Below are positions 1 through 10,212 of a DNA stretch of 10,212 nt, one piece after another. Position numbers and translations under genes: made by a program. Every line of letters starts with the position of its first letter. Positions within the stretch are counted from its first letter, which is position 1. The notes below the pieces were generated by a model. It was not told the DNA's origin. It ran no database searches and saw only the letters and a list, made by a program, of their open reading frames with translations. Origin of the DNA: a virus (lineage: Duplodnaviria > Heunggongvirae > Uroviricota > Caudoviricetes); the IMG/VR virus record IMGVR_UViG_2698536672_000013. One strand, written 5' to 3'.

Positions 1-486
1 TCATGCTGCCCTTACGATGTAATTAAACGCAATATTACGAGGACGAATGGTTACATAATTAACCCCATCACCTCGTGAAGGCCCTGCAAATGAAAAACAG
101 GAAAAGCCTGGTTGGTTAGAAACAATTTGGTCATAGTTATTGATTGAATGACCAGACCCAATGTCGAAATTACCTCCGTATTGAGAAAAACTTGTACCAT
201 CCTGTTCTGAAAGCAGGGTACGTCCCGCATCAATCCCGCGCCCATCATCCCAGCCACGAATAAACTCACCGCGTAAATCCAGCAGTTTCCCTGACGGGTA
301 TGCTTTGGCAAGGTTGGGATATTTCACTTTATCAAAGGCAGCACCATTGCATTTCAGCCAGCCGGTCGGCGGAGTAGTAGAAGGCCACGGAATCGGTACA
401 CCAACAGGCAATGCAGAGCCTTTCCCCAAACCAACGTTTTCGTCTTTATCCCTACCTATACCAACTATGTATTTTTCACGAAACAA
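1..486 (-). CDS. Phage tail fibre protein, variable C-terminal cassette; partial (continues past the left window edge) and apparently silent in this orientation
   Basis: The minus-strand frame is open from 486 to 1. The translation carries the tail-fibre junction motif shared by P2 H, Mu S, P1 S and lambda Stf (PVGVPIPWP...PTGWLKCNGAAF...YPNLAKAY...LDLRGEFIRGWDDGRGID). The frame opens with TTG, not ATG, has no Shine-Dalgarno, and begins right at the gix-like site, as expected for a cassette expressed only after fusion to a constant N-terminal part. Confidence 0.6.
   Translation of the reverse strand: MFREKYIVGIGRDKDENVGLGKGSALPVGVPIPWPSTTPPTGWLKCNGAAFDKVKYPNLAKAYPSGKLLDLRGEFIRGWDDGRGIDAGRTLLSEQDGTSFSQYGGNFDIGSGHSINNYDQIVSNQPGFSCFSFAGPSRGDGVNYVTIRPRNIAFNYIVRAA
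421..446. other. Candidate Gin/Hin-family inversion crossover site (gix/hix/cix-like, 26 bp)
   Basis: TTTCCCCAAACC-AA-CGTTTTCGTCTT: an imperfect dyad with the AAACC NN GTTT core typical of gix/hix sites as I recall them. It lies about 55 bp upstream of the invertase start and inside the tail-fibre reading frame, as in Mu G, P1 C and e14 P. The left half matches my remembered consensus well, the right half poorly. Confidence 0.45.
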
Positions 487-500
487 AGAGGATGTTTTTT

Positions 501-1100
501 ATGCAAATTGGCTATATTCGTGTGTCAACAAATGACCAGAACACGGATTTACAACGCAATGCACTGAACTGCGCAGGATGTGAACTGATTTTTGAAGATA
601 AAATCAGCGGAACGAAATCAGCCAGACCGGGATTGAAAAAACTGCTCAGAACGCTATCAGAAGGAGATACGCTGGTTGTCTGGAAGCTGGACAGACTGGG
701 CAGAAGTATGAAACACCTGATCACGCTTATTGAGGAATTGCGGGAAAAAGGTGTTAATTTCCGTAGTCTGACGGACAGCATTGACACATCAACACCCATG
801 GGGCGTTTCTTTTTTCACGTCATGGGGGCTTTAGCCGAAATGGAACGTGAATTAATTGTAGAGCGTACACTGGCCGGGCTGGCAGCAGCACGCGCACAAG
901 GACGCATTGGCGGACGTCGCCCGAAGTTGACAAAAGAACAACACGAGCAAATAGCGAGGCTGATTAAAAACGGTCATGACAGGAAACAACTGGCGATCAT
1001 TTACGACATCGGCATATCGACGATTTATCGTTATCACCCTGTAGGCGATATACAGGCTGAAGAAACAACCAGGCAGACTCAGGAAAATGAAAACCGCTAA
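501..1100 (+). CDS. Serine-recombinase DNA invertase (Gin/Hin/Pin/Cin family)
   Basis: The N-terminus MQIGYIRVSTNDQNTDLQ contains the catalytic serine motif. Further family hallmarks are LVVWKLDRLGRS, FFHVMGALAEMERELI.ERT and a C-terminal helix-turn-helix (KQLAIIYDIGISTIYRY). ATG 501 is preceded by AAGAGGA at 486-492. The ORF-track start at 411 is an in-frame upstream extension without an RBS. Confidence 0.93.
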   Translation: MQIGYIRVSTNDQNTDLQRNALNCAGCELIFEDKISGTKSARPGLKKLLRTLSEGDTLVVWKLDRLGRSMKHLITLIEELREKGVNFRSLTDSIDTSTPMGRFFFHVMGALAEMERELIVERTLAGLAAARAQGRIGGRRPKLTKEQHEQIARLIKNGHDRKQLAIIYDIGISTIYRYHPVGDIQAEETTRQTQENENR

Positions 1101-1126
1101 TCTGACCATTAGCGGTTTTGCGTTAA

Positions 1127-1621
1127 TCAAAACAGCCCTTTAACGGAGCTGGCCGCGCTGTTAAGGGATGATGTGACCTTATCTTTGAAGCCGGACAGCA
1201 TATCACTGAACGATGAGGATTGCAGGCGCTCCCGCAAATCCTCATCACAGCGTTCAAGAGTCAGTGAAAATTCTATCTTTTTCGCCTTACCGTAGCGATC
1301 AAACTCGGAGCGGGTCGTATTCGTTCCGGTCAGGACATACATGCCGTAAATCTGCCCGACACCATCAATCAGAGGCCAGGGGCGTCCTGTATATGCCTGC
1401 GTGGTCAGCAACGAAAGCGACACTTCGCCACCTGTAATTTCAGGATAAAGCACACCAGAAAGAACGATGCGATCATCGCCTGCCCCGATATACTGCCAGC
1501 TTGCTGAACGGTTAACGCGTTCATTTTTCACATGCCGCCAGCTTTTGTTTTGCTGTAACTGCTGATGCGGCAACGTGCGCAGCTCAAAAACAAACATGCC
1601 ATAGATCATCATCATGGCCAT
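1127..1621 (-). CDS. U: P2 gpU-like tail protein
   Basis: 164 aa. The N-terminus (M)MMIYGMFVFELRTLPHQQLQ...WRH resembles P2 gpU as I remember it. It sits immediately downstream of the tape-measure gene, with GAGGAG just upstream. Several Met codons (1621, 1615, 1612) could be the true start. Confidence 0.8.
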   Translation of the reverse strand: MAMMMIYGMFVFELRTLPHQQLQQNKSWRHVKNERVNRSASWQYIGAGDDRIVLSGVLYPEITGGEVSLSLLTTQAYTGRPWPLIDGVGQIYGMYVLTGTNTTRSEFDRYGKAKKIEFSLTLERCDEDLRERLQSSSFSDMLSGFKDKVTSSLNSAASSVKGLF

Positions 1622-1627
1622 GACTCC

Positions 1628-4444
1628 TCAATCTTTATCGTAAAAACTGCCACGCCCGGCACGGGCGCGCCGTTCCATCTCTGCCCTGACCATTTCACCG
1701 ACCAGTTTCGCCAGTTCGCGGGGATTCTGTGTAACAACGTTATGCAGATGAACATGAATTTCACCACCAAATCCGGAGGCAACAGGCTCCCGGTTACGGG
1801 AAGTTACAGGAACTGATGCCACTGGAGATCGTATGGCCTCCGCCACCGGGCGGGAGCTGGCCGCAACAACAGGGACCAGCGCCGGAGGCAGCGGAGCCGG
1901 GACCACGGGTGTGATATTAATTGCGGGGGCAGGCTTACTGGCCTGCGCAATCTTCCGCTCCTGCCACTCCCCACGAACAGCAAGTGCTCGGGGCAGGTTT
2001 TTAAAGACAATATCGCCGGGGCCAATGCGTTTTTTCGTCTCCTCAACCAGCTTACCTGTGTTATCAGCAATTTTGCTGAGTCTGCGTAGCGTCCCGGTAT
2101 TGCTGTCTGTGAGCGGTTTGTTGTCTTTGGGTTTATCACCTCCGGTGCCATTGCCATTTTCCACAGGCTTCGGCGGATTGATTTTCGCCAGGTCCCCTTG
2201 AAGTAAGGCAACCTTGTCCTGAAGAATGGCCGCACGCTGTGCGTCTTCGATTTTCTTTCTCGCCCTTTCCGCTTCATCCGGAAGCACACCGAGTTTTTCA
2301 AGTATCCACGCCAGCGTATCCAGTAGCATTTTTGCAGGTGTCAGAACAAGTTGTAACGCACCGCCAAGAACGTTACCGAATATCTCGCCAGCACTGGTAC
2401 ATTTATCCAGCGTTTCCTTGCTGGACTCCATCGGTGACAGCAGCGATTTAAACCAGTTAAACACCTGGCTGATCCCGCTTCCGATTGCGTCAAAAACAGG
2501 GCCAAACCGTTCAAAGGTTTCACGCAACGGGTTCAGCCTTTCCATAATCCCGCTGAACACCCCGGCAAAAAATGCCCTGATGGGATCCCAGTATTTCCAG
2601 ATAAGAACGGCAGCGCCGGCAAGCGCAGCCACGATAAGACTAACCGGACTGAACAGCGCCCCGATAGCTCCTCCCAGCAAAGAAACAGAACCCGTCACCA
2701 TTCCCCACAGCGCAGGCAACACCCTGATGACATTCATTGACCGGGTAAGAATGTCGAAACCAAGACGCAAGGTGGCCAGCTTCCCGTAAAGCACCCCAAT
2801 AACCAGCGACAACGAGCCAATCGTTGCAGTCATTGCCAGCAACGCACCGCCTGCTATCAGTAGCTGGCGCGTCAGTACCGGATGGGCCTGCGCCAGCGAG
2901 GTGATTTTTTCAAGCACCCGCGTGAGCCACTGCGTGACAGAACGCAGCGGACCGTCAACCAGATCACTGATGCGAATACGAAGACCTTCCCATGCGCTGT
3001 CGAGATTTTTCAGGTCTCCATCAAGATTATCGGCCATTACTTTTGCAACGCGATCGGCCTCTCCCCTTGCCCCCTGCAATTCTCTGGTCAGTTTTTGCAG
3101 TTCTCCTGAACCAGCCGCCGCAACAAGCGTCTGCAAACCAACGAACGCCTCTTCTCCGGCGATGTCCTTGAAGAAGGAGACCTGGTCCACCTGTCCGTAT
3201 TTTTGTGTCGCCTTATAGAGATCAAGCAGCACATCCTCCATCGGGCGCATTTTGCCTCTGGCGTCAGCAACTGACACCCCCAGCTCTTTCAGTGCATCAG
3301 CCGCAGCTTTTGGCGGTGATGCAAGGCGGGACAGACTTGCGCGCATGGCCGTACCAGCATCGCTTCCGCGAAGACCATTATTGGCAAGCATCCCGGCCAT
3401 GGCCGCCGCTTCTTCAAGACTGATACCAAGTTTTGCGGCAACCGGACCGGTATACTTCATGGTTTCGCCCAGCGCGCGTAAATCAGTATTGGTCCGGGTG
3501 AATGCTGCTGTCAGCGTATCGCCAACCCGGTCCATTTGATCGGCTGTCAGGTTGAACTGTGTGAGGATATTGGAGCCTATATCAGCCGTCTCGCCGAGTT
3601 CGACGCCACCTGCCAGCGCCATATTAAGAACACCGGGCAATGCGGCCTGAATGGCCTGCGGAGTAAAACCAGCCATTGCCAGAAAGCTCTGCCCACTGGC
3701 GGCATCACTCGCAGTAAACTGTGTTTCAGAACCAAGTTTTAACGCCTGCTCACGCAGCGCCTTAAACTGCGGGCTGTTTTTGTCGATTCGCGTCAGTGCC
3801 TGAACGCGGGACATCTCTTTGCCGAACCCGATCGCAGGCTGCAAAAAACGCCCGGCAGCATAGCCGCCAGCCGCTGCCGCACCAATTGCCAGCGCACCAC
3901 CTGTTTTCAGTTTTCCCGCGGTTTCCTGCGCGCGCGAATACCGCTCACGCGCCCGCGTTACACGCGCAAGCGCCTGCCGTTCGCGTTCAAGCTGGTTGTT
4001 GTACTGTTCGGTGCGTCTGATGGCCTGCTGGATGGTGTTATCGCTGCCTGTCAGGGAAATGCCGTGGCGTTTCAGCTCTCCGCCAAGTTCCCGCATTTTC
4101 TGAATTTCCCGTGTGCGCGATTCATTCAGGCGTTCAAGCCGGGTGCTTAACTGCTGCATCAGCTTTTGTTGTTTTTCGCTGAGCACTGTACCCGTGCGTT
4201 GTAACTGATTAAGGGCGTTAAGCTGGCGTCGTGCTTTCACGATGCCCGCATCCGCTTTACTGACAGCGTCACGGGCGCGCTCAAATGAACGCGCCTGACG
4301 CTCGAGATTTTTGATCGCCCCCTGCGTTCGCTGGATGGAGTCACCAAACTGCCCCATCAGGCGGCGGGCGTTTTCGGCAGGCCGGGTCAGCCTGTCAACG
4401 GCGCTGAAAGCGACCCGGATATCAAGAGTCTTCATTGTCTGCAT
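1628..4444 (-). CDS. T: Phage tail tape-measure protein (P2 gpT-like)
   Basis: 938 aa. The N-terminal half is Ala/Arg/Gln/Leu-rich and looks coiled-coil; the middle has long hydrophobic Gly/Ala-rich stretches (LLIAGGALLAMTATIGSLSLVIGVL...). Its position after E/E' and before U matches the conserved order. Confidence 0.88.
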   Translation of the reverse strand: MQTMKTLDIRVAFSAVDRLTRPAENARRLMGQFGDSIQRTQGAIKNLERQARSFERARDAVSKADAGIVKARRQLNALNQLQRTGTVLSEKQQKLMQQLSTRLERLNESRTREIQKMRELGGELKRHGISLTGSDNTIQQAIRRTEQYNNQLERERQALARVTRARERYSRAQETAGKLKTGGALAIGAAAAGGYAAGRFLQPAIGFGKEMSRVQALTRIDKNSPQFKALREQALKLGSETQFTASDAASGQSFLAMAGFTPQAIQAALPGVLNMALAGGVELGETADIGSNILTQFNLTADQMDRVGDTLTAAFTRTNTDLRALGETMKYTGPVAAKLGISLEEAAAMAGMLANNGLRGSDAGTAMRASLSRLASPPKAAADALKELGVSVADARGKMRPMEDVLLDLYKATQKYGQVDQVSFFKDIAGEEAFVGLQTLVAAAGSGELQKLTRELQGARGEADRVAKVMADNLDGDLKNLDSAWEGLRIRISDLVDGPLRSVTQWLTRVLEKITSLAQAHPVLTRQLLIAGGALLAMTATIGSLSLVIGVLYGKLATLRLGFDILTRSMNVIRVLPALWGMVTGSVSLLGGAIGALFSPVSLIVAALAGAAVLIWKYWDPIRAFFAGVFSGIMERLNPLRETFERFGPVFDAIGSGISQVFNWFKSLLSPMESSKETLDKCTSAGEIFGNVLGGALQLVLTPAKMLLDTLAWILEKLGVLPDEAERARKKIEDAQRAAILQDKVALLQGDLAKINPPKPVENGNGTGGDKPKDNKPLTDSNTGTLRRLSKIADNTGKLVEETKKRIGPGDIVFKNLPRALAVRGEWQERKIAQASKPAPAINITPVVPAPLPPALVPVVAASSRPVAEAIRSPVASVPVTSRNREPVASGFGGEIHVHLHNVVTQNPRELAKLVGEMVRAEMERRARAGRGSFYDKD

Positions 4445-4960
4445 TCCCGCTGCGAAGTGCCGCCCGCTCGCGCCAGCTAACCACTTCGCCGGGCGTCATC
4501 ATGAAGATTTCGGCGGGCGACCAGTTAAAAATGGCGGCAATATCCGCCACCAGATCTTCGATGTGCTCAAAGCACACCAGGGTGATTACGCTGCCGTCTC
4601 CTGCACGCTCTTCGCGCCAGAGTCTGGCTCGCTCATAAAATTTACAGCCACAGCGCACAACTGAATAAAATCGCGTGACGACATTTTTTTAATCATCACT
4701 TCATCCAGTCGTGGCGAGGTCACGCGAGGCAACAGCGTGAACATGGTATCCGCTTTCAGATTCAGCACATCAGACAGAGACAGACCACGCAGGGATCCAG
4801 CCTGTTCAATAGCCCCGGTGATCTCCACATATGTGATTTTTTCGGCACCACGCTCAATTGGCCGGGAAAGTTTTACACCACGTTCGACAGCCATATCCTC
4901 ACCTGACGTCACATCATCCGCTACGGTGTTATTCCGGGTTTCAGTATCGATATCTTTCAT
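4422..4960 (-). CDS. E+E' tail assembly chaperone made by programmed -1 ribosomal frameshift (E N-terminus joined to the E' frame)
   Basis: The E frame contains ATT AAA AAA ATG (A7 run at 4684-4690, minus-strand sense). The -1 frame is open from 4688 to a stop at 4422-4424 and overlaps the T start. This matches the conserved frameshift in the chaperone pair upstream of the tape-measure gene (lambda G/GT, P2 E/E'). Confidence 0.5.
4586..4960 (-). CDS. E: Tail assembly chaperone (P2 gpE-like)
   Basis: 124 aa, acidic, located between the tube and tape-measure genes. AAGGAG lies 7 nt upstream of ATG 4960. Confidence 0.8.
   Translation of the reverse strand: MKDIDTETRNNTVADDVTSGEDMAVERGVKLSRPIERGAEKITYVEITGAIEQAGSLRGLSLSDVLNLKADTMFTLLPRVTSPRLDEVMIKKMSSRDFIQLCAVAVNFMSEPDSGAKSVQETAA
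4684..4690 (-). other. Candidate slippery site (A7) for the E/E' -1 frameshift
   Basis: Seven consecutive A on the coding (minus) strand, at the point where the -1 frame becomes open, directly after a TAA in that frame. Confidence 0.45.
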
Positions 4961-5015
4961 CAGTTGTCTCCTTTTCAGTCAGAGGCGACGCACTGCGCCG
5001 CCTGCATATTACTTA

Positions 5016-5528
5016 TCAGCCAAGCCCAAGCGCGGAACGAATGCGGTCAGGCACAATGTCCTTGCCGTCCTTCCGGTAGATGTGGTTCAACAGGTCGATT
5101 TCCCACAGCGGGCGATCGTTAACGCTCAGCTTGTAGTAGGTGTTTTTGACAGCGTAAGTGTGTGATGTGGCTTCGCCCTGTTTGGCCTCCCCCATATCAA
5201 TTTCCGTCACACGCCCGCGCATCTCGATTTCATACAGATCGCTTTCTGCATCGGTGTAGTATTCACCCGCAAAACGCAGCAGCGTGCCGTCAATCGTGCC
5301 GCCATATTTAAGGAACAGCGCACGAACAGCTCCCCCCATGACAAAACTCGCATCAAGCGCGGAGTCGTCCAGACCGAGATCAATACTTACCGCCCCCATC
5401 ATGCCACCACCACGATAGCTGTCGGTTTTGCGCGTCAGTTTGGGTGGCGTGACGGACGTCACCTTACCCACTTCGTTTTCACCATCCACAAACAGCGTAA
5501 AAAAGCGAAGATGTTTTGGTACAGCCAT
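5016..5528 (-). CDS. FII: Contractile tail tube protein (P2 FII-like)
   Basis: 170 aa. MAVPKHLRFF...SVTPPKLTRKTDSYRGGGMMG...LRFAGEY...EIEMRGRVTEIDMGEAKQGE resembles P2 FII. The start overlaps the FI stop (TGATG). Confidence 0.9.
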   Translation of the reverse strand: MAVPKHLRFFTLFVDGENEVGKVTSVTPPKLTRKTDSYRGGGMMGAVSIDLGLDDSALDASFVMGGAVRALFLKYGGTIDGTLLRFAGEYYTDAESDLYEIEMRGRVTEIDMGEAKQGEATSHTYAVKNTYYKLSVNDRPLWEIDLLNHIYRKDGKDIVPDRIRSALGLG

Positions 5529-6712
5529 CAGGCACCTCCCAGCACCGCAAATGCGGGACCAAAGAATTCATCAGTAAACGACTGGTAAAGCTCCATGTCT
5601 TCCAGCGGCGGAACGGGCGTATATTTGTAGCGAATACGCACACGCCCCTGACGTAAATTCATGGTGCTGTTATCCACGATGTCATACCAGCACTCCGCGC
5701 CAATCAGTTTCCCGGCAGTAACCAGTGAATCCAGTTTTGCCCTGATGGCACTGATAACATCCTTCACGTTCGCAGGCGTCAGTGGACTGTCGATGGTTTC
5801 AAACTGCGCTTCCGCAATTGAATCAGCCAGCACCTGTGCGGTTCGGGTATACACCTCAAAGATGTAGGCGTTCGTTTCCGGTGTGCGGTTGCCCCAGAAG
5901 CGGAGCCCGTTGCGACGAATAATGGTCGTGATTTCTTTGTTGTTGAGGCTGTTGGCATCGCTGTCTTCGGCCTGCAACGACCAGAACACATGCCTGGACA
6001 TCCCCAGCACATTTTTAACCGGAACGTTGGACAGTGATTTGTGCCATCCCTGCTCATGGTCAATGTACGCACGAAGGCCGCACGCATAGGCAGGCGCGGG
6101 GAACGTTTCGTTTTTGCCACTTTTCGGGTTGTAGGCGATGAAGTCAGGCCATAAGAGCATCACCTCACGTTCGTTGAATTTCTGGCGGTAGGTAATCGCC
6201 TCAGCCATCGTGTTACAACCATGACATGCGGCATACACAAACGCGCGCAGTTTACCCGCAATCACGCACAGGGATTTTGTCACCGCCTCCGTGTCCAGCT
6301 CCGGCGCGGCCAGAATACGCGGACGGTATCCGATGCTTTCATCCTGCTCTGCAACAAGCAGCGCATACATCCCCGTATAGCTGCCGTCAGATTCAGAACC
6401 ACCGATAACCAGTTGATCCTGCGTCTTTCCGTTTTCTTCTTTGTGTTCAGCCACGCGAACGACGATCACCTTTGTGCTCACCTGGTCTGCGATGGCCTTA
6501 AGCGCACGATAAAGCGTCCCCGTTGTCCCGCATTTTCCCAGCACGTCATTGACGCGGGTCAGCAGTGTGGGCTTGTTCAGCGGGAACAGCTTCGCGTCCG
6601 CATCATCCGCCGTTGCCACGATACCGATAACGCTGGAATCAACATCGTTAATCGCTGTTACCAGGTCGGTACTTTCCGTAACACGGGCACCATGAAAACG
6701 AGTTTCACTCAT
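5528..6712 (-). CDS. FI: Contractile tail sheath protein (P2 FI-like)
   Basis: 394 aa. The N-terminus (...ATADDADAKLFPLNKPTLLTRVNDV...GTLYRALKAIADQ) and the length match P2 FI as I remember it. AAGGGG lies 8 nt upstream of ATG 6712. Confidence 0.92.
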   Translation of the reverse strand: MSETRFHGARVTESTDLVTAINDVDSSVIGIVATADDADAKLFPLNKPTLLTRVNDVLGKCGTTGTLYRALKAIADQVSTKVIVVRVAEHKEENGKTQDQLVIGGSESDGSYTGMYALLVAEQDESIGYRPRILAAPELDTEAVTKSLCVIAGKLRAFVYAACHGCNTMAEAITYRQKFNEREVMLLWPDFIAYNPKSGKNETFPAPAYACGLRAYIDHEQGWHKSLSNVPVKNVLGMSRHVFWSLQAEDSDANSLNNKEITTIIRRNGLRFWGNRTPETNAYIFEVYTRTAQVLADSIAEAQFETIDSPLTPANVKDVISAIRAKLDSLVTAGKLIGAECWYDIVDNSTMNLRQGRVRIRYKYTPVPPLEDMELYQSFTDEFFGPAFAVLGGA

Positions 6713-6869
6713 AGCTTCAGCCCCTTGTATCCGTTAAATGATTCGGCAACAATCATCACCCACCACGCGCGTAATCTCACCCCTGCGCCGTTCTCCCGCC
6801 ACGGCGACAACAAAAAGCAGTAACCCCCTCCGCACGCACATGCGACCATGCCGCACAGGGAGGGAGCAG

Positions 6870-7979
6870 ATGACCGACACCACCATGCAATTGCTCAGTC
6901 AGGGCACAGACCCCGTAAAAATGCCGGATTTTGATATTCTCGCGGAGGGTAAAACGCTGTCAGGCGTGGCAGAGCGCCTGATGAGCCTGTCACTGACCGA
7001 CAACCGGGGATTTGACGCGGACCAGCTCACCATCACGCTGGATGATGCGGATGGTCAGTTGCAGCTACCGCCACGGGGCGCGCGCCTGACGGTTCTCATT
7101 GGCTGGAAAGGAGAACCGCTGACAGAAAAAGGCACTTACATTGTTGATGAAATCGCTCACGAAGGACCGCCGGACAGGCTGACTGTTTCAGCCAGAAGCG
7201 CAGATTTTCGGGATGAATTTAACGTTAAACGTGAGGTGTCCTGGCATGATGTGACCGTTGAGCGTGTGGTATCCGCCATCGCTCATCGGTACGGTCTGAA
7301 ACCGCAAATCAGCGAAATGCTGATGGATATCGAAATCGACCACGCCGACCAGACCGAAGAAAGCGACATGTCCTTTCTTACGCGCATGGCGGAAATGCTG
7401 GGCGCAATCACCACGGTAAAAAGCGGTAATCTGTTATTCATTATGCCAGGCGGTGGCGTGAACGCACAGGGCCAGCCGTTGCCCTCGTTCGCCATCACGC
7501 GCGGCAGTGGCGATCGCCATCAGTTCCGCATTGCTGACCGCGAAGCGTATACGGGGGTACGCGCTTACTGGCTTGATCTTAATTACGGGAAAAAGAAAAA
7601 AGTCAGCGTGAAACGCCGTAAACCGCCAAAACCCAAAAAGGAGAAAAGCAGCAGCCGTGAAGGTGATTATATGGAAGGCGCGGAAGGCAATGTGTTTGTG
7701 TTACGCAAGACTTATCAGAACGAGCAGGCAGCAAGACGCGCAGCGGCGGCAAAGTGGCAGCAGCTACAACGCGGAGCCGCATCATTCTCCATCACGCTGG
7801 CATGTGGTCGTGCAGAACTCTACCCCGAAATGCATGGCACGGTAACAGGATTTAAAAGCGAGATTGATAATCAGGACTGGATTATTGCAAAAGCCGAGCA
7901 CACCATCGATAACAGCGGCTTTACCACGCAGCTTGAGCTTGAGGCAAAAATCCCGGAATGGATAGCAGAAACAGAGTGA
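6870..7979 (+). CDS. D: P2 gpD-like tail protein (late gene D)
   Basis: LSLTDNRGFDADQL, SARSADFR, SWHD, FLTRMAE, a Lys/Pro-rich linker (KKKKVSVKRRKPPKPKKEK) and the C-terminal block FSITLACGRAELYPE...GFTTQLELE match the gpD pattern. GGGAGGGAG precedes ATG 6870. The ORF-track start at 6738 is an unlikely upstream extension; ATG 6885 is an alternative start. Confidence 0.85.
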   Translation: MTDTTMQLLSQGTDPVKMPDFDILAEGKTLSGVAERLMSLSLTDNRGFDADQLTITLDDADGQLQLPPRGARLTVLIGWKGEPLTEKGTYIVDEIAHEGPPDRLTVSARSADFRDEFNVKREVSWHDVTVERVVSAIAHRYGLKPQISEMLMDIEIDHADQTEESDMSFLTRMAEMLGAITTVKSGNLLFIMPGGGVNAQGQPLPSFAITRGSGDRHQFRIADREAYTGVRAYWLDLNYGKKKKVSVKRRKPPKPKKEKSSSREGDYMEGAEGNVFVLRKTYQNEQAARRAAAAKWQQLQRGAASFSITLACGRAELYPEMHGTVTGFKSEIDNQDWIIAKAEHTIDNSGFTTQLELEAKIPEWIAETE

Positions 7980-8021
7980 GCAACTTAGAATAGCAGCAGC
8001 ACCACGTTAAGGGAGGTCGCT

Positions 8022-8282
8022 ATGTTCCGTTGTCCGCTTTGTGGCGCATCTGCCCGTATCCGCACCAGTCGTCCGGAAAATGATTCAAACACCGTGCGGC
8101 AAAAGTATTACCAGTGTAACAACCTGGAATGCGGCGTATGCTTCTCAACACTGGAAGCTTTCCATAAATTCACATCAAAACACACCTCCGGCGTTCACTC
8201 TTCAGAAGGTATCCCGTGGCATGAGCTGCCAGCTTCACACAGGGGAAACAATCAGATGAGTTTGCCTTTACCTCAGAATTAA
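8022..8282 (+). CDS. ogr: Ogr/Delta-family zinc-finger late transcription activator
   Basis: MFRCPLCGASARIRTSR...YYQCNNLECG gives the C-x2-C...C-x4-C pattern and N-terminal similarity to P2 Ogr (MFHCPLC...). AAGGGAGG precedes ATG 8022. At 86 aa it is longer than P2 Ogr (72 aa). Confidence 0.88.
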   Translation: MFRCPLCGASARIRTSRPENDSNTVRQKYYQCNNLECGVCFSTLEAFHKFTSKHTSGVHSSEGIPWHELPASHRGNNQMSLPLPQN

Positions 8283-8473
8283 CAGGCAGAATTGCCGGAG
8301 TAACAAAAAAGCGATAGATTACGCGCGGGTGCCTTTCGGCTGATGGTCGGAGGGAATACCCGAAGGCCAGATGTGGAAAGGCCCCGGAAAACATTTCTGT
8401 TTAACCGAGGCCCTAACATATCTACCTTAAGCAAGTGATAGGTTAGCGCCTCTCCAACAAAGGAGCAAGCGCT

Positions 8474-8614
8474 ATGTCGCAAAAATCGCTTACGGCCATC
8501 ACGTTCTGCGTGACGGTAATCCTCATCATCTGGATGCTACACGGTTCGCTGTGTGAAATACGGATGAGCTTCTGGGGAGCGGAGTTTGCGGCGTTCTTAC
8601 AGTGTAAGCAGTAA
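8474..8614 (+). CDS. Hok/Gef-family type I toxin (small membrane peptide), 46 aa
   Basis: Translation MSQKSLTAITFCVTVILIIWMLHGSLCEIRMSFWGAEFAAFLQCKQ: an N-terminal hydrophobic helix followed by the SLCE(I/L) and AAFL.C motifs seen in HokA-like peptides. AAGGAG lies 9 nt upstream of the ATG. It is absent from the ORF track only because it is shorter than 60 aa. Confidence 0.65.
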   Translation: MSQKSLTAITFCVTVILIIWMLHGSLCEIRMSFWGAEFAAFLQCKQ

Positions 8615-8708
8615 GGAAACCGCGACGGGGAAGGCAACTTCCCCGTCAATCGGTTGCCAGGGTAAAGGTCGAAAAGGCACCCTATTTCCAGTTGACGTGA
8701 ACAACAAG

Positions 8709-8740
8709 CCCGCAGCGTAAAAACTGCGGGTTTTCTTTTT
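8709..8740 (+). terminator. Rho-independent terminator, probable 3' end of the hok-like transcript
   Basis: A 7 bp GC-rich stem (CCCGCAG / CTGCGGG) with an 8 nt loop, followed by TTTTCTTTTT. Confidence 0.55.
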
Positions 8741-8764
8741 GGTTCCCTCACTCATGAGGACACC

Positions 8765-8804
8765 AAAAAACAAAGCCCACAGCATAGAAGCTGTGGGCTT
8801 TTTG
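8765..8804. terminator. Bidirectional hairpin terminator
   Basis: A perfect 11 bp stem (AAGCCCACAGC / GCTGTGGGCTT) with a 6 nt loop, flanked by an A-run upstream and a T-run downstream. Confidence 0.5.
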
Positions 8805-8877
8805 CATTCAAAGATGGACGTTATATGGACACTTAAAAATAAAATCCATTTATTTTCAAATGATTAAACCTCTACTT

Positions 8878-8898
8878 AAAGCGCCCGCAGGCGCTTTT
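8878..8898. terminator. Hairpin terminator between serS and the upstream region (likely the serS terminator; T-run is stronger on the plus strand)
   Basis: Stem GCGCC / GGCGC with a 4 nt loop, flanked by AAA and TTTTT, about 20 bp beyond the serS stop codon. Confidence 0.5.
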
Positions 8899-8919
8899 TA
8901 GATTCAGAAAAATTGGGTA

Positions 8920-10212
<1,293 letters not shown>

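Follow-up and report, generated by a model that had tools for sequence, protein, structure and literature searches.

A tail-gene module beside serS is very probably the right end of a P88-like prophage

A chromosomal block that carries phage tail genes and no other recognizable part of a phage raises the question of whether it is a tail-like bacteriocin kept by its host or one arm of a prophage that continues beyond the DNA at hand. The window analysed here, a stretch of 10,212 nucleotides corresponding to positions 13–10224 of contig CVTE01000024.1 (assembly GCA_001499595.1), holds such a module beside serS, the host gene for seryl-tRNA synthetase (8920–10212, minus strand; a 430-aa ORF annotated as serS in all relatives), which flanks the element and lies outside it. 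A first-pass annotation of this DNA had offered two readings, either the right arm of a P2-family prophage, seen at its ogr end and with attR lying between that gene and serS, or a domesticated R-type tailocin. On the sequence comparisons below, positions 1–8877 (about 8.9 kb) are very probably the right end of a P88-like temperate myovirus prophage (Peduoviridae, Xuanwuvirus) inserted at the serS terminator, and the element is an ordinary, common P88-type E. coli prophage arm that is already known and already annotated.

The tail-only appearance of the window has a simple origin. Neither ORFs nor profiles reveal a capsid, terminase, lysis, integrase or repressor gene within it, exactly as first reported. 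Only 12 nt of CVTE01000024.1 lie to the left of the window, and they are the crossover core AAACCAACGTTT of a DNA inversion system; the window looks tail-only because the draft contig stops there, within the repeated fibre-switching region, and the lack of non-tail phage genes is therefore an effect of truncation. A second draft assembly breaks at the same base, and in ST131 prophages inversion of the fibre region is known to cause breaks or duplications in assemblies (PMC4134206).

Strong profile matches assign the ORFs in 1–8282 to tail, fibre-switching or late-regulatory functions, so the earlier statement that every phage gene here is a tail or tail-regulatory gene needs amending only for the invertase and hok, which are not strictly tail genes. 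Five tail functions lie on the minus strand, namely the contractile tail sheath protein FI (5528–6712; three Pfam sheath domains; PHROG tail sheath, 6.9e-124; 97% identical to P88), the tail tube protein FII (5016–5528; Pfam Phage_tube, 2.1e-45; 97% identical to P88), the tail assembly chaperones E (4586–4960) and E+E′ (continuing to 4422 and thus spanning 4422–4960), the 938-aa tail tape measure protein gpT (1628–4444; Pfam PhageMin_Tail, 1.6e-56; 94.5% identical to P88) and a gpU-like tail protein (1127–1621; Pfam Phage_P2_GpU, 1.5e-38; 100% identical to the P88 protein). E matches a PHROG tail protein family (4.1e-36) and the E′ frame matches Phage_P2_GpE (2.1e-12). A −1 frameshift is predicted to join the two at the heptamer A_AAT_TTT (4643–4637, minus strand), which lies in X_XXY_YYZ register inside the E/E′ overlap and from which the −1 frame enters the GpE-domain ORF; the P2 record annotates the same −1 frameshift for E/E+E′. 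Divergent from this block, the plus strand encodes gpD, a 369-aa tail protein of the late-control D/baseplate-hub family (6870–7979; Pfam Phage_GPD, 3.1e-17; PHROG, 4.6e-165; 96% identical to P88). A longer gpD ORF starting at 6738 can be drawn, and that position is probably not the real start; gene calls in relatives, like that in the source contig, give a protein of 369 aa.

Inversion of the FI–U block relative to D–ogr is a trait of the genus. An invertase-mediated or assembly inversion within the window was considered as its origin and rejected, as no inverted repeats bracket the block and the arrangement is common to P88 and all relatives.

Downstream of D, an Ogr/Delta zinc-finger late-gene activator is encoded at 8022–8282 (plus strand; Pfam Ogr_Delta PF04606, 5e-14). 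It shares 97.7% identity with its counterpart in P88, where the gene is unannotated, and 36% with P2 Ogr. Its target may tentatively be placed in the divergent FI/D intergenic region, where a TTGT-N14-AAC element at 6790–6810 (minus strand) is a candidate Ogr-responsive late-promoter site. This element begins 98 nt upstream of the FI ATG, and the annotated P2 pF activator site, also TTGT-N14-AAC, lies 97 nt upstream of P2 FI; by motif alone such elements are not above chance, with two found against 1.5 expected. The P2 late-promoter dyad TGT-N12-ACA gave one match in the window, at 468–485, below chance expectation, and none in the FI/D intergenic region.

At the opposite end of the module lies the fibre-switching system. 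Positions 1–486 (minus strand) carry a silent tail-fibre C-terminal cassette, a 161-aa ORF with Collar (Pfam, 2.4e-11) and 'tail collar fiber protein' (PHROG, 3.7e-61) matches, which is the invertase-proximal member of a multi-cassette invertible fibre region. Next to it, 501–1100 (plus strand) encodes a 199-aa serine DNA invertase of the Din family (Hin/Gin/Cin/Pin-type; Pfam Resolvase PF00239, 1.6e-51, and HTH_7 PF02796, 1.4e-12; PHROG 'DNA invertase', 1e-98), and an identical invertase protein is indexed in 7,224 blocks of the assembly collection. The predicted invertase crossover site is the 26-bp sequence TTTCCCCAAACC-AA-CGTTTTCGTCTT at 421–446, which was read directly from the DNA and lies in the 5′ part of the cassette ORF. 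It is similar both to the Din-family consensus and to the 3′ site of EC958 Phi2 (PMC4134206 Table 3). Its core occurs once in the window and again at the contig end, leaving a single full site inside the window. Among relatives that have the core, each fibre region contains two to seven copies, and the core was not found in P88 itself. In L019, a stretch of DABVXP010000001.1 (assembly GCA_014753745.1) that is 99.99% identical to the window (one mismatch), two further cassettes, a fibre assembly gene and the fibre gene H lie leftward of the window's end, and the inverted partner of a 214-bp repeat sits in the expressed fibre gene. The switchable fibre suggested at first pass thus takes the form of a multi-cassette Din-type inversion system with invertase and crossover sites present and with activity predicted from sequence. 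Such repeats can also act between elements: as strain 4/0, one of the relatives sampled, shows, recombination can take place between the switching repeats of two prophages and invert about 27 kb of chromosome.

The stretch between ogr and serS, which had been read as a gap of about 640 bp separating the module from a core gene, is itself phage DNA that reaches to 22 bp from the serS stop codon. It contains two features that the first-pass annotation had missed, a toxin–antitoxin locus and the attR core, together with hairpins. The locus at 8327–8614 (plus strand) is of the hok/sok type I toxin–antitoxin class, with a sok-like leader (8327–8484) and a 46-aa Hok/Gef toxin ORF (8474–8614) that matches PHROG_251 'MokW-like host killing' (2.5e-23) and is 100% identical to P88 gp52; relatives carry the Hok/Gef annotation, and Pfam HOK_GEF is weak on the identical product. 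No Rfam model matched the window at gathering thresholds; under relaxed settings the leader gave a full-model match to sok (RF01794; 47.9 bits, E=1.3e-9, under the gathering score of 59), and the other relaxed matches were noise. Two terminator-like hairpins, at 8706–8733 (plus strand) and 8801–8772 (minus strand), were picked up by a consensus scan in the phage attP arm and may act as terminators.

The attR core, AAAGCGCCCGCAGGCGCTTT, occupies 8878–8897 in the stem-loop of the serS transcription terminator and marks the phage–host boundary. Homology to the empty K-12 site starts exactly at this core and the core ends 22 bp from the serS stop codon. The 20-bp sequence is single in K-12, and it occurs as two direct repeats bracketing the prophage in two relatives, L001 and L012 (strains 1434 and 266917_2), in which the copies lie 39,954 bp and 36,737 bp apart, respectively, and the far-end copy adjoins dmsA. 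Integration replaces the U-tract of the serS terminator. No relevant paper on a serS/dmsA prophage site was found in a search of the literature. The junction with serS is present in 279 of 5,426 complete genomes (about 5%; a junction-specific count), and the same tail module occurs at no fewer than five other chromosomal integration sites, which indicates a mobile element and not a fixed locus.

Related genomes supply what the contig lacks. A full phage gene set contiguous with the module and a far-end repeat, which the first pass had named as signs of an ordinary prophage and thus as evidence against a tailocin, are both seen in L001 and L012. There, a whole prophage fills the interval from dmsA to serS in the order integrase, replication, portal, terminase, capsid, lysis, baseplate, fibre and then the module of the window, up to hok, over about 37–40 kb; the L012 copy lies at 4,878,100–4,914,850 of NZ_CP026723.1. 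attL and the integrase, which are not on the window's contig, are present in both. In strains U13A, AF10 and PCN033, about 20 kb read to the left of the invertase encodes fibre, baseplate, lysis, capsid, terminase, portal and replication/partition genes in the same order. Altogether, of the six complete E. coli genomes sampled, five carry the serS-site prophage as a contiguous element, its full extent having been read in L001 and L012. L019 reads through from the module into cassettes, tfa, H, I, J, W, V, S, R, lysis genes and X, and the 10 kb of left flank read there ends at gene X, just before the expected head genes. Together with the attR core and the DNA identity and gene order shared with P88, these observations bear out the prophage-arm reading offered at first pass. 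In the genome under study the head, lysis, baseplate and integrase genes presumably lie on another contig, and the prophage is likewise presumed to be complete.

Might the tail arm have been cut off from its prophage in this particular genome? It would then be part of a disrupted, decaying prophage and not of a functional phage, broken by an inversion between the fibre cassettes of two prophages or by an IS-mediated or other deletion. Precedents exist among the relatives, and the window's contig itself ends in a recombinogenic region. In strain 4/0, an inversion separates the tail arm from the rest of the prophage, with serS, tail arm, invertase and cassettes followed by the cassettes of a Mu-like prophage and a second invertase beside aroA, and with the att cores inverted. 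L004, at another site, is an IS-associated deletion remnant in which integrase and early genes are followed by an IS and then by cassette, invertase and tail arm, and L001 has an IS66 insertion in its fibre region. Weighing more heavily the other way, the split arrangement of strain 4/0 occurs in only 1 of 5,426 complete genomes and is the one exception to contiguity among the six relatives sampled; the nearly identical L019 is contiguous through fibre, baseplate and lysis genes, and all ORFs of the window are intact and full length compared with P88. We therefore regard disruption as improbable here.

Less probable still, to the point of being very unlikely, is a domesticated R-type tailocin, in which the host would have retained a locus for tails alone and would use it to produce headless, bactericidal particles whose fibre can be switched. 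The window shows no head, packaging or integration gene, the 10 kb of left flank read in L019 shows baseplate genes and a lysis cassette, and tailocins with invertible fibres exist, carotovoricin being described as one with an invertase-switched fibre (PMC13195805). Set against this are the core of an integrase-mediated insertion within the window, the absence of the locus from about 95% of E. coli genomes, the presence of the module at several other att sites, and head, packaging, replication and integrase genes in all sampled relatives. The span from endolysin to capsid is covered to at least 80% in 1,046 of 1,107 matching genomes, so that the lysis cassette is nearly always joined to head genes, and among the complete genomes listed no match was confined to the lysis genes, that is, none had a lysis cassette without head genes. 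Moreover, P88 itself makes infectious, headed virions (PMC5285337), and the Ogr late activator and hok moron are typical prophage cargo. The tailocin reading of the first pass is not supported. There is equally little likelihood that the serS-proximal tail arm became uncoupled from head and integrase genes, by inter-prophage invertase recombination or deletion, and was kept as an Ogr-controlled tail-only module; were this so, it would be an E. coli R-type tailocin in the making, its fibre switchable among several cassettes.

Read as the right end of a P88-like prophage, the window suggests the following course. The phage would have integrated through a tyrosine integrase into the 20-bp serS-terminator stem-loop, between serS and dmsA. 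Ogr would activate late promoters, after which FI and FII would form sheath and tube, E and the frameshifted E+E′ would act as chaperones for the tape measure T, and U and D would complete the tail and hub. The Din-family invertase may swap silent C-terminal cassettes onto the fibre gene and thereby change host range, and the hok/sok-type toxin–antitoxin would be a moron carried beside attR. Activity of the invertase, Ogr and Hok is predicted from their sequences. The tail-only look would follow from the position of FI–U, D and ogr at the extreme right of the prophage and from a short-read contig that halts in a repeated crossover site. As these genes occupy the extreme right of Xuanwuvirus prophages, any truncation there mimics a tailocin. 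The biological weight of the finding is small and its lesson methodological: where a window or contig stops in a repeated, invertible fibre region, finding tail genes alone beside that edge is no ground for calling the module a tailocin.

Among known systems, the closest likeness is to P88 (Xuanwuvirus P88, Peduoviridae; NC_026014), P884B11, 500465-2 and Citrobacter phage Shae_phiSM, with 92–94% DNA identity over window positions 507–8740 (92.3% for the tail module against P88). The ICTV genus criterion of about 70% nucleotide identity applies to the whole genome, and about 8.9 kb of a 36–40-kb genome lies on this contig. The order of fibre cassettes, invertase (plus strand), U-T-E′-E-FII-FI (minus strand), D (plus strand), ogr and hok is shared, including the inverted FI–U block, and U, T, FII, FI, D, Ogr and Hok are 94–100% identical (100% for U and Hok). 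By contrast, E is only 72% and the invertase 87% identical, the fibre cassettes differ, and so do the integration module and att site; homology stops near 8740, and the last approximately 140 bp, the attP arm, belong to a serS-type integrase system. P88 can be induced with mitomycin C and is plaque-forming; its particles have a 55-nm head and a contractile tail (PMC5285337).

The fibre region resembles those of EC958 Phi1 and Phi2 of ST131, which likewise combine a Din-type invertase, 26-bp crossover sites and a constant fibre 5′ part joined to alternative Collar-domain 3′ cassettes, and in which inversion disturbs assemblies (PMC4134206). The left half-site and core of the window's site match the reverse complement of the Phi2 3′ site. 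The EC958 sites are described as single invertible segments of 2–3 kb (PMC4134206), whereas the relatives of the window have two to seven crossover cores in a multi-cassette arrangement. From its coordinates, EC958 Phi1 would appear to be a serS-site prophage.

Bacteriophage P2 (Peduovirus P2) shares the tail genes FI, FII, E/E+E′ with the −1 frameshift, T, U and D, the Ogr late activator and an attP directly after the ogr end of the genome. Protein identity is only 33–48%, and FI-FII-E-T-U-D form one co-directional operon in P2, whereas in the window the FI–U block is inverted and divergent from D; P2 also has no invertase, fibre cassettes or hok. R-type tailocins, such as the R-pyocins of Pseudomonas and carotovoricin Er of Pectobacterium, share with the window a P2-family module of contractile sheath, tube and tape measure. 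Tailocin loci are not known to carry att repeats, integrase, replication or head genes, and they keep a fixed chromosomal position. The element in the window, by contrast, has an attR core, is found at this junction in about 5% of complete genomes and at several other sites, and has relatives that are full phages.

The window very probably holds the right arm of a P88-like (Xuanwuvirus) prophage, with the rest of that prophage on another contig. The ORF list and the profile matches agree with the gene list of the first-pass annotation, identifying on the minus strand a Collar-domain tail-fibre C-terminal cassette (1-486), gpU (1127-1621), a 938-aa tape measure (1628-4444), the E and E′ reading frames (4586-4960 and 4422-4658), tube FII (5016-5528), sheath FI (5528-6712) and serS (8920-10212), and on the plus strand a serine DNA invertase with Resolvase and HTH_7 domains (501-1100), gpD (6870-7979) and Ogr (8022-8282). 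A search of the window for tRNA genes returned none. The E/E′ overlap contains the heptamer A_AAT_TTT in X_XXY_YYZ register (4643-4637, minus strand), from which a −1 slip, as we read the sequence, leads directly into the GpE-domain frame; the same −1 frameshift is annotated for E+E′ of P2. The mechanical ORF of gpD starts at 6738, whereas every gene call starts it 132 nt further downstream, at 6870; the extra stretch (6738-6869) reaches across the FI/D divergent promoter region and probably stays untranslated.

The 637-bp interval between ogr and serS, initially described as a gap of about 640 bp, is not empty and carries hok, hairpins and the attR core. A previously unmentioned hok/sok-type toxin–antitoxin locus (8327-8614) lies between ogr and attR and includes a 46-aa Hok/Gef toxin gene (8474-8614, plus strand; PHROG 'MokW-like host killing', 2.5e-23). 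The sok-like leader 5′ of this gene matches the full Rfam model RF01794 with 47.9 bits (E=1.3e-9), which does not reach the gathering score of 59, and two terminator-like hairpins follow on its 3′ side. The 350-bp hok region is ~85% identical to hok loci of Stx2-converting phages. Host homology begins exactly at 8878 in an alignment to the empty K-12 serS-dmsA intergenic region, and the 20-bp sequence AAAGCGCCCGCAGGCGCTTT (8878-8897) forms the serS terminator stem-loop. This core is present as one copy in K-12 and as direct repeats on both sides of the prophage in relatives, spaced by 39,954 bp (strain 1434) or 36,737 bp (strain 266917_2). Alignment boundary and core duplication thus place attR where it had been predicted, between ogr and serS, and leave 22 bp between the phage DNA and the stop codon of serS. 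In this part of the window (8772-8905), integration retains the terminator hairpin and replaces its U-tract (GCGCTTTTTTTGTC in K-12 versus GCGCTTTAAGTAGAGG in the lysogen), exchanging a run of 7 T for 3 T followed by AAGTAGAGG. A phage-borne terminator-like hairpin (8801-8772, minus strand) stands on the serS strand ~80 nt beyond the serS terminator, and this predicted structure may take over serS termination.

Traced by an exact match of its tape-measure protein, the window corresponds to positions 13-10224, reversed, of contig CVTE01000024.1 (78.6 kb, GCA_001499595.1) at 100% identity, and past window position 1 the contig has only 12 nt, AAACCAACGTTT. These nucleotides repeat the core of the invertase crossover site, which in the window stands at 428-439 inside a full 26-bp site (421-446). 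The exact fibre cassette of the window occurs in three assemblies: two, the window's own and a second draft (L021), break at the same base, and the third (L019, on a contig of 802 kb) continues past the break point. Published PacBio sequencing of ST131 strain EC958 showed frequent inversion of such prophage fibre segments, which interferes with assembly (PMC4134206). A break in a repeated crossover core, taken with this precedent, indicates that the contig, and with it the window, is truncated, and that the lack of head, lysis and integrase genes is very probably an artefact of this; their absence had been misread. L019 matches the whole window at 99.99% identity, with 1 mismatch, and the 10-kb flank read to the left runs through two more cassettes, tfa, H, I, J, W, V, S, R, SASA/DUF6645, Rz, endolysin and holin and ends at X.

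Complete E. coli genomes contain the ogr-hok-attR-serS junction (window 7990-9300) in 279 of 5426 cases, and 344 contain the integrase-attL-dmsA junction. We sampled six genomes with the module at serS (1434, 266917_2, U13A, AF10, PCN033 and 4/0). Strains 1434 and 266917_2, read end to end, each carry a contiguous 37-40 kb prophage between dmsA and serS, ordered from the dmsA side as integrase, C-like repressor, Cox, replication endonuclease, ParM, portal, terminase, scaffold, capsid, gpM, L, X, holin, endolysin, Rz/LysC, SASA/DUF6645, R, S, V, W, J, I, H, tfa, cassettes, invertase, U..FI, D, ogr and hok. U13A, AF10 and PCN033, read for ~20 kb left of the invertase, keep this order out to portal and replication or partition genes. 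Together with the attR core and identity to P88, these contiguous relatives uphold the earlier reading of a P2-family prophage right arm. The tailocin proposed as its alternative, which drew on the tail-only gene content, is highly improbable: the endolysin-holin-X-L-M-N span has some match in 1107 genomes, in 1046 of which 80% or more of it is covered, and none of the matches listed is restricted to lysis genes, so no population of lysis-plus-tail derivatives is visible. An identical invertase with the same tail module also occurs at five or more other chromosomal flanks, including pheT/ihfA, flk, the pdxB side and bamD/yfiA, which argues for a mobile phage and not a fixed host locus.

Certainty about the window's own prophage is limited by two relatives; disruption or splitting of the prophage in that strain is unlikely. 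In strain 4/0, the tail arm, invertase and cassettes beside serS are fused to the cassettes and second invertase of a Mu-like prophage beside aroA. The aroA-to-dmsA segment is inverted along with integrase, capsid, baseplate and H, so that the two att cores point in opposite directions. Of 5426 complete genomes, 1 has exactly this arrangement. The split (NZ_CP023849.1; L013 1-14500, L014 10000-14200) is a ~27 kb chromosomal inversion with endpoints in the fibre-cassette regions of the P88-like and Mu-like prophages, the latter with its own invertase. Related switches of fibre regions, and a translocation between 'Entero_P88' and 'Burkho_phiE255' prophages, are described for ST131 'Bone' isolates in a preprint (10.1101/2022.05.07.487787). 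The second relative, at another att site (L004 1-20600; CP024134.1), is a genuinely tail-only, IS-associated deletion remnant that has lost head, lysis and baseplate genes; after integrase, cox and early genes comes an IS (rve/DDE), and next to it the Collar cassette and invertase, with U..FI, D, ogr and hok beyond.

Relatives that carry the AAACCAACGTTT core have 2-7 copies per fibre region, and the stop codon of each silent cassette abuts the next crossover site. This multi-cassette switch (window 421-446 and the contig end; L006 7411-9940, L008 5868-9940 and L012 11046-12557 in other relatives) is nearer to multiple-inversion (Min/shufflon-like) systems than to a simple two-state G segment. 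Applying established family knowledge to the sequence, we infer that Ogr would activate the late promoters, and that the FI-U operon and D would supply sheath, tube, chaperones, tape measure, tail terminator and hub. Acting on the 26-bp sites, the invertase would join one or another Collar-domain C-terminus to fibre gene H, an exchange expected to alter receptor specificity, and hok/sok could stabilise the prophage or act as a moron. One candidate Ogr site (TTGT-N14-AAC) begins 98 nt before the FI ATG, compared with 97 nt before P2 FI for the pF activator site of P2; the count of this motif alone is not above chance, and a motif search upstream of FI found no classical TGT-N12-ACA dyad.

The phage-genome search aligned 507-8740 at 92-94% identity to Escherichia phage P88, Xuanwuvirus P884B11, phage 500465-2 and Citrobacter phage Shae_phiSM. 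Identity to P88 proteins is 100% for U and Hok, 97.7% for Ogr, 97.1% for FII, 97.0% for FI, 96.2% for D, 94.5% for T, 86.7% for the invertase and 71.5% for E, whereas P2 counterparts reach only 33-48%. P88 can be induced with mitomycin C and forms plaques; it is a myovirus whose head measures 55 nm and whose contractile tail measures 137 nm (PMC5285337). A moron for a 626-aa SASA/DUF6645 protein (sialate O-acetylesterase-like, NanS-p type) lies between lysis and tail-completion genes in the sampled serS-site prophages (L019 17200-19080; strain 1434, L001 23695-25575; strain 266917_2, L012 18787-20667) and is missing from P88. We considered the inverted FI-U block as a rearrangement and rejected this, as P88 shares the layout and no inverted repeats bracket the block. 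The P88 record is arranged as in the window, with invertase(+), U-T-E′-E-FII-FI(−), D(+) and hok, whereas P2 has one co-directional FI-FII-E-T-U-D-ogr operon; the inverted block is therefore a genus trait.
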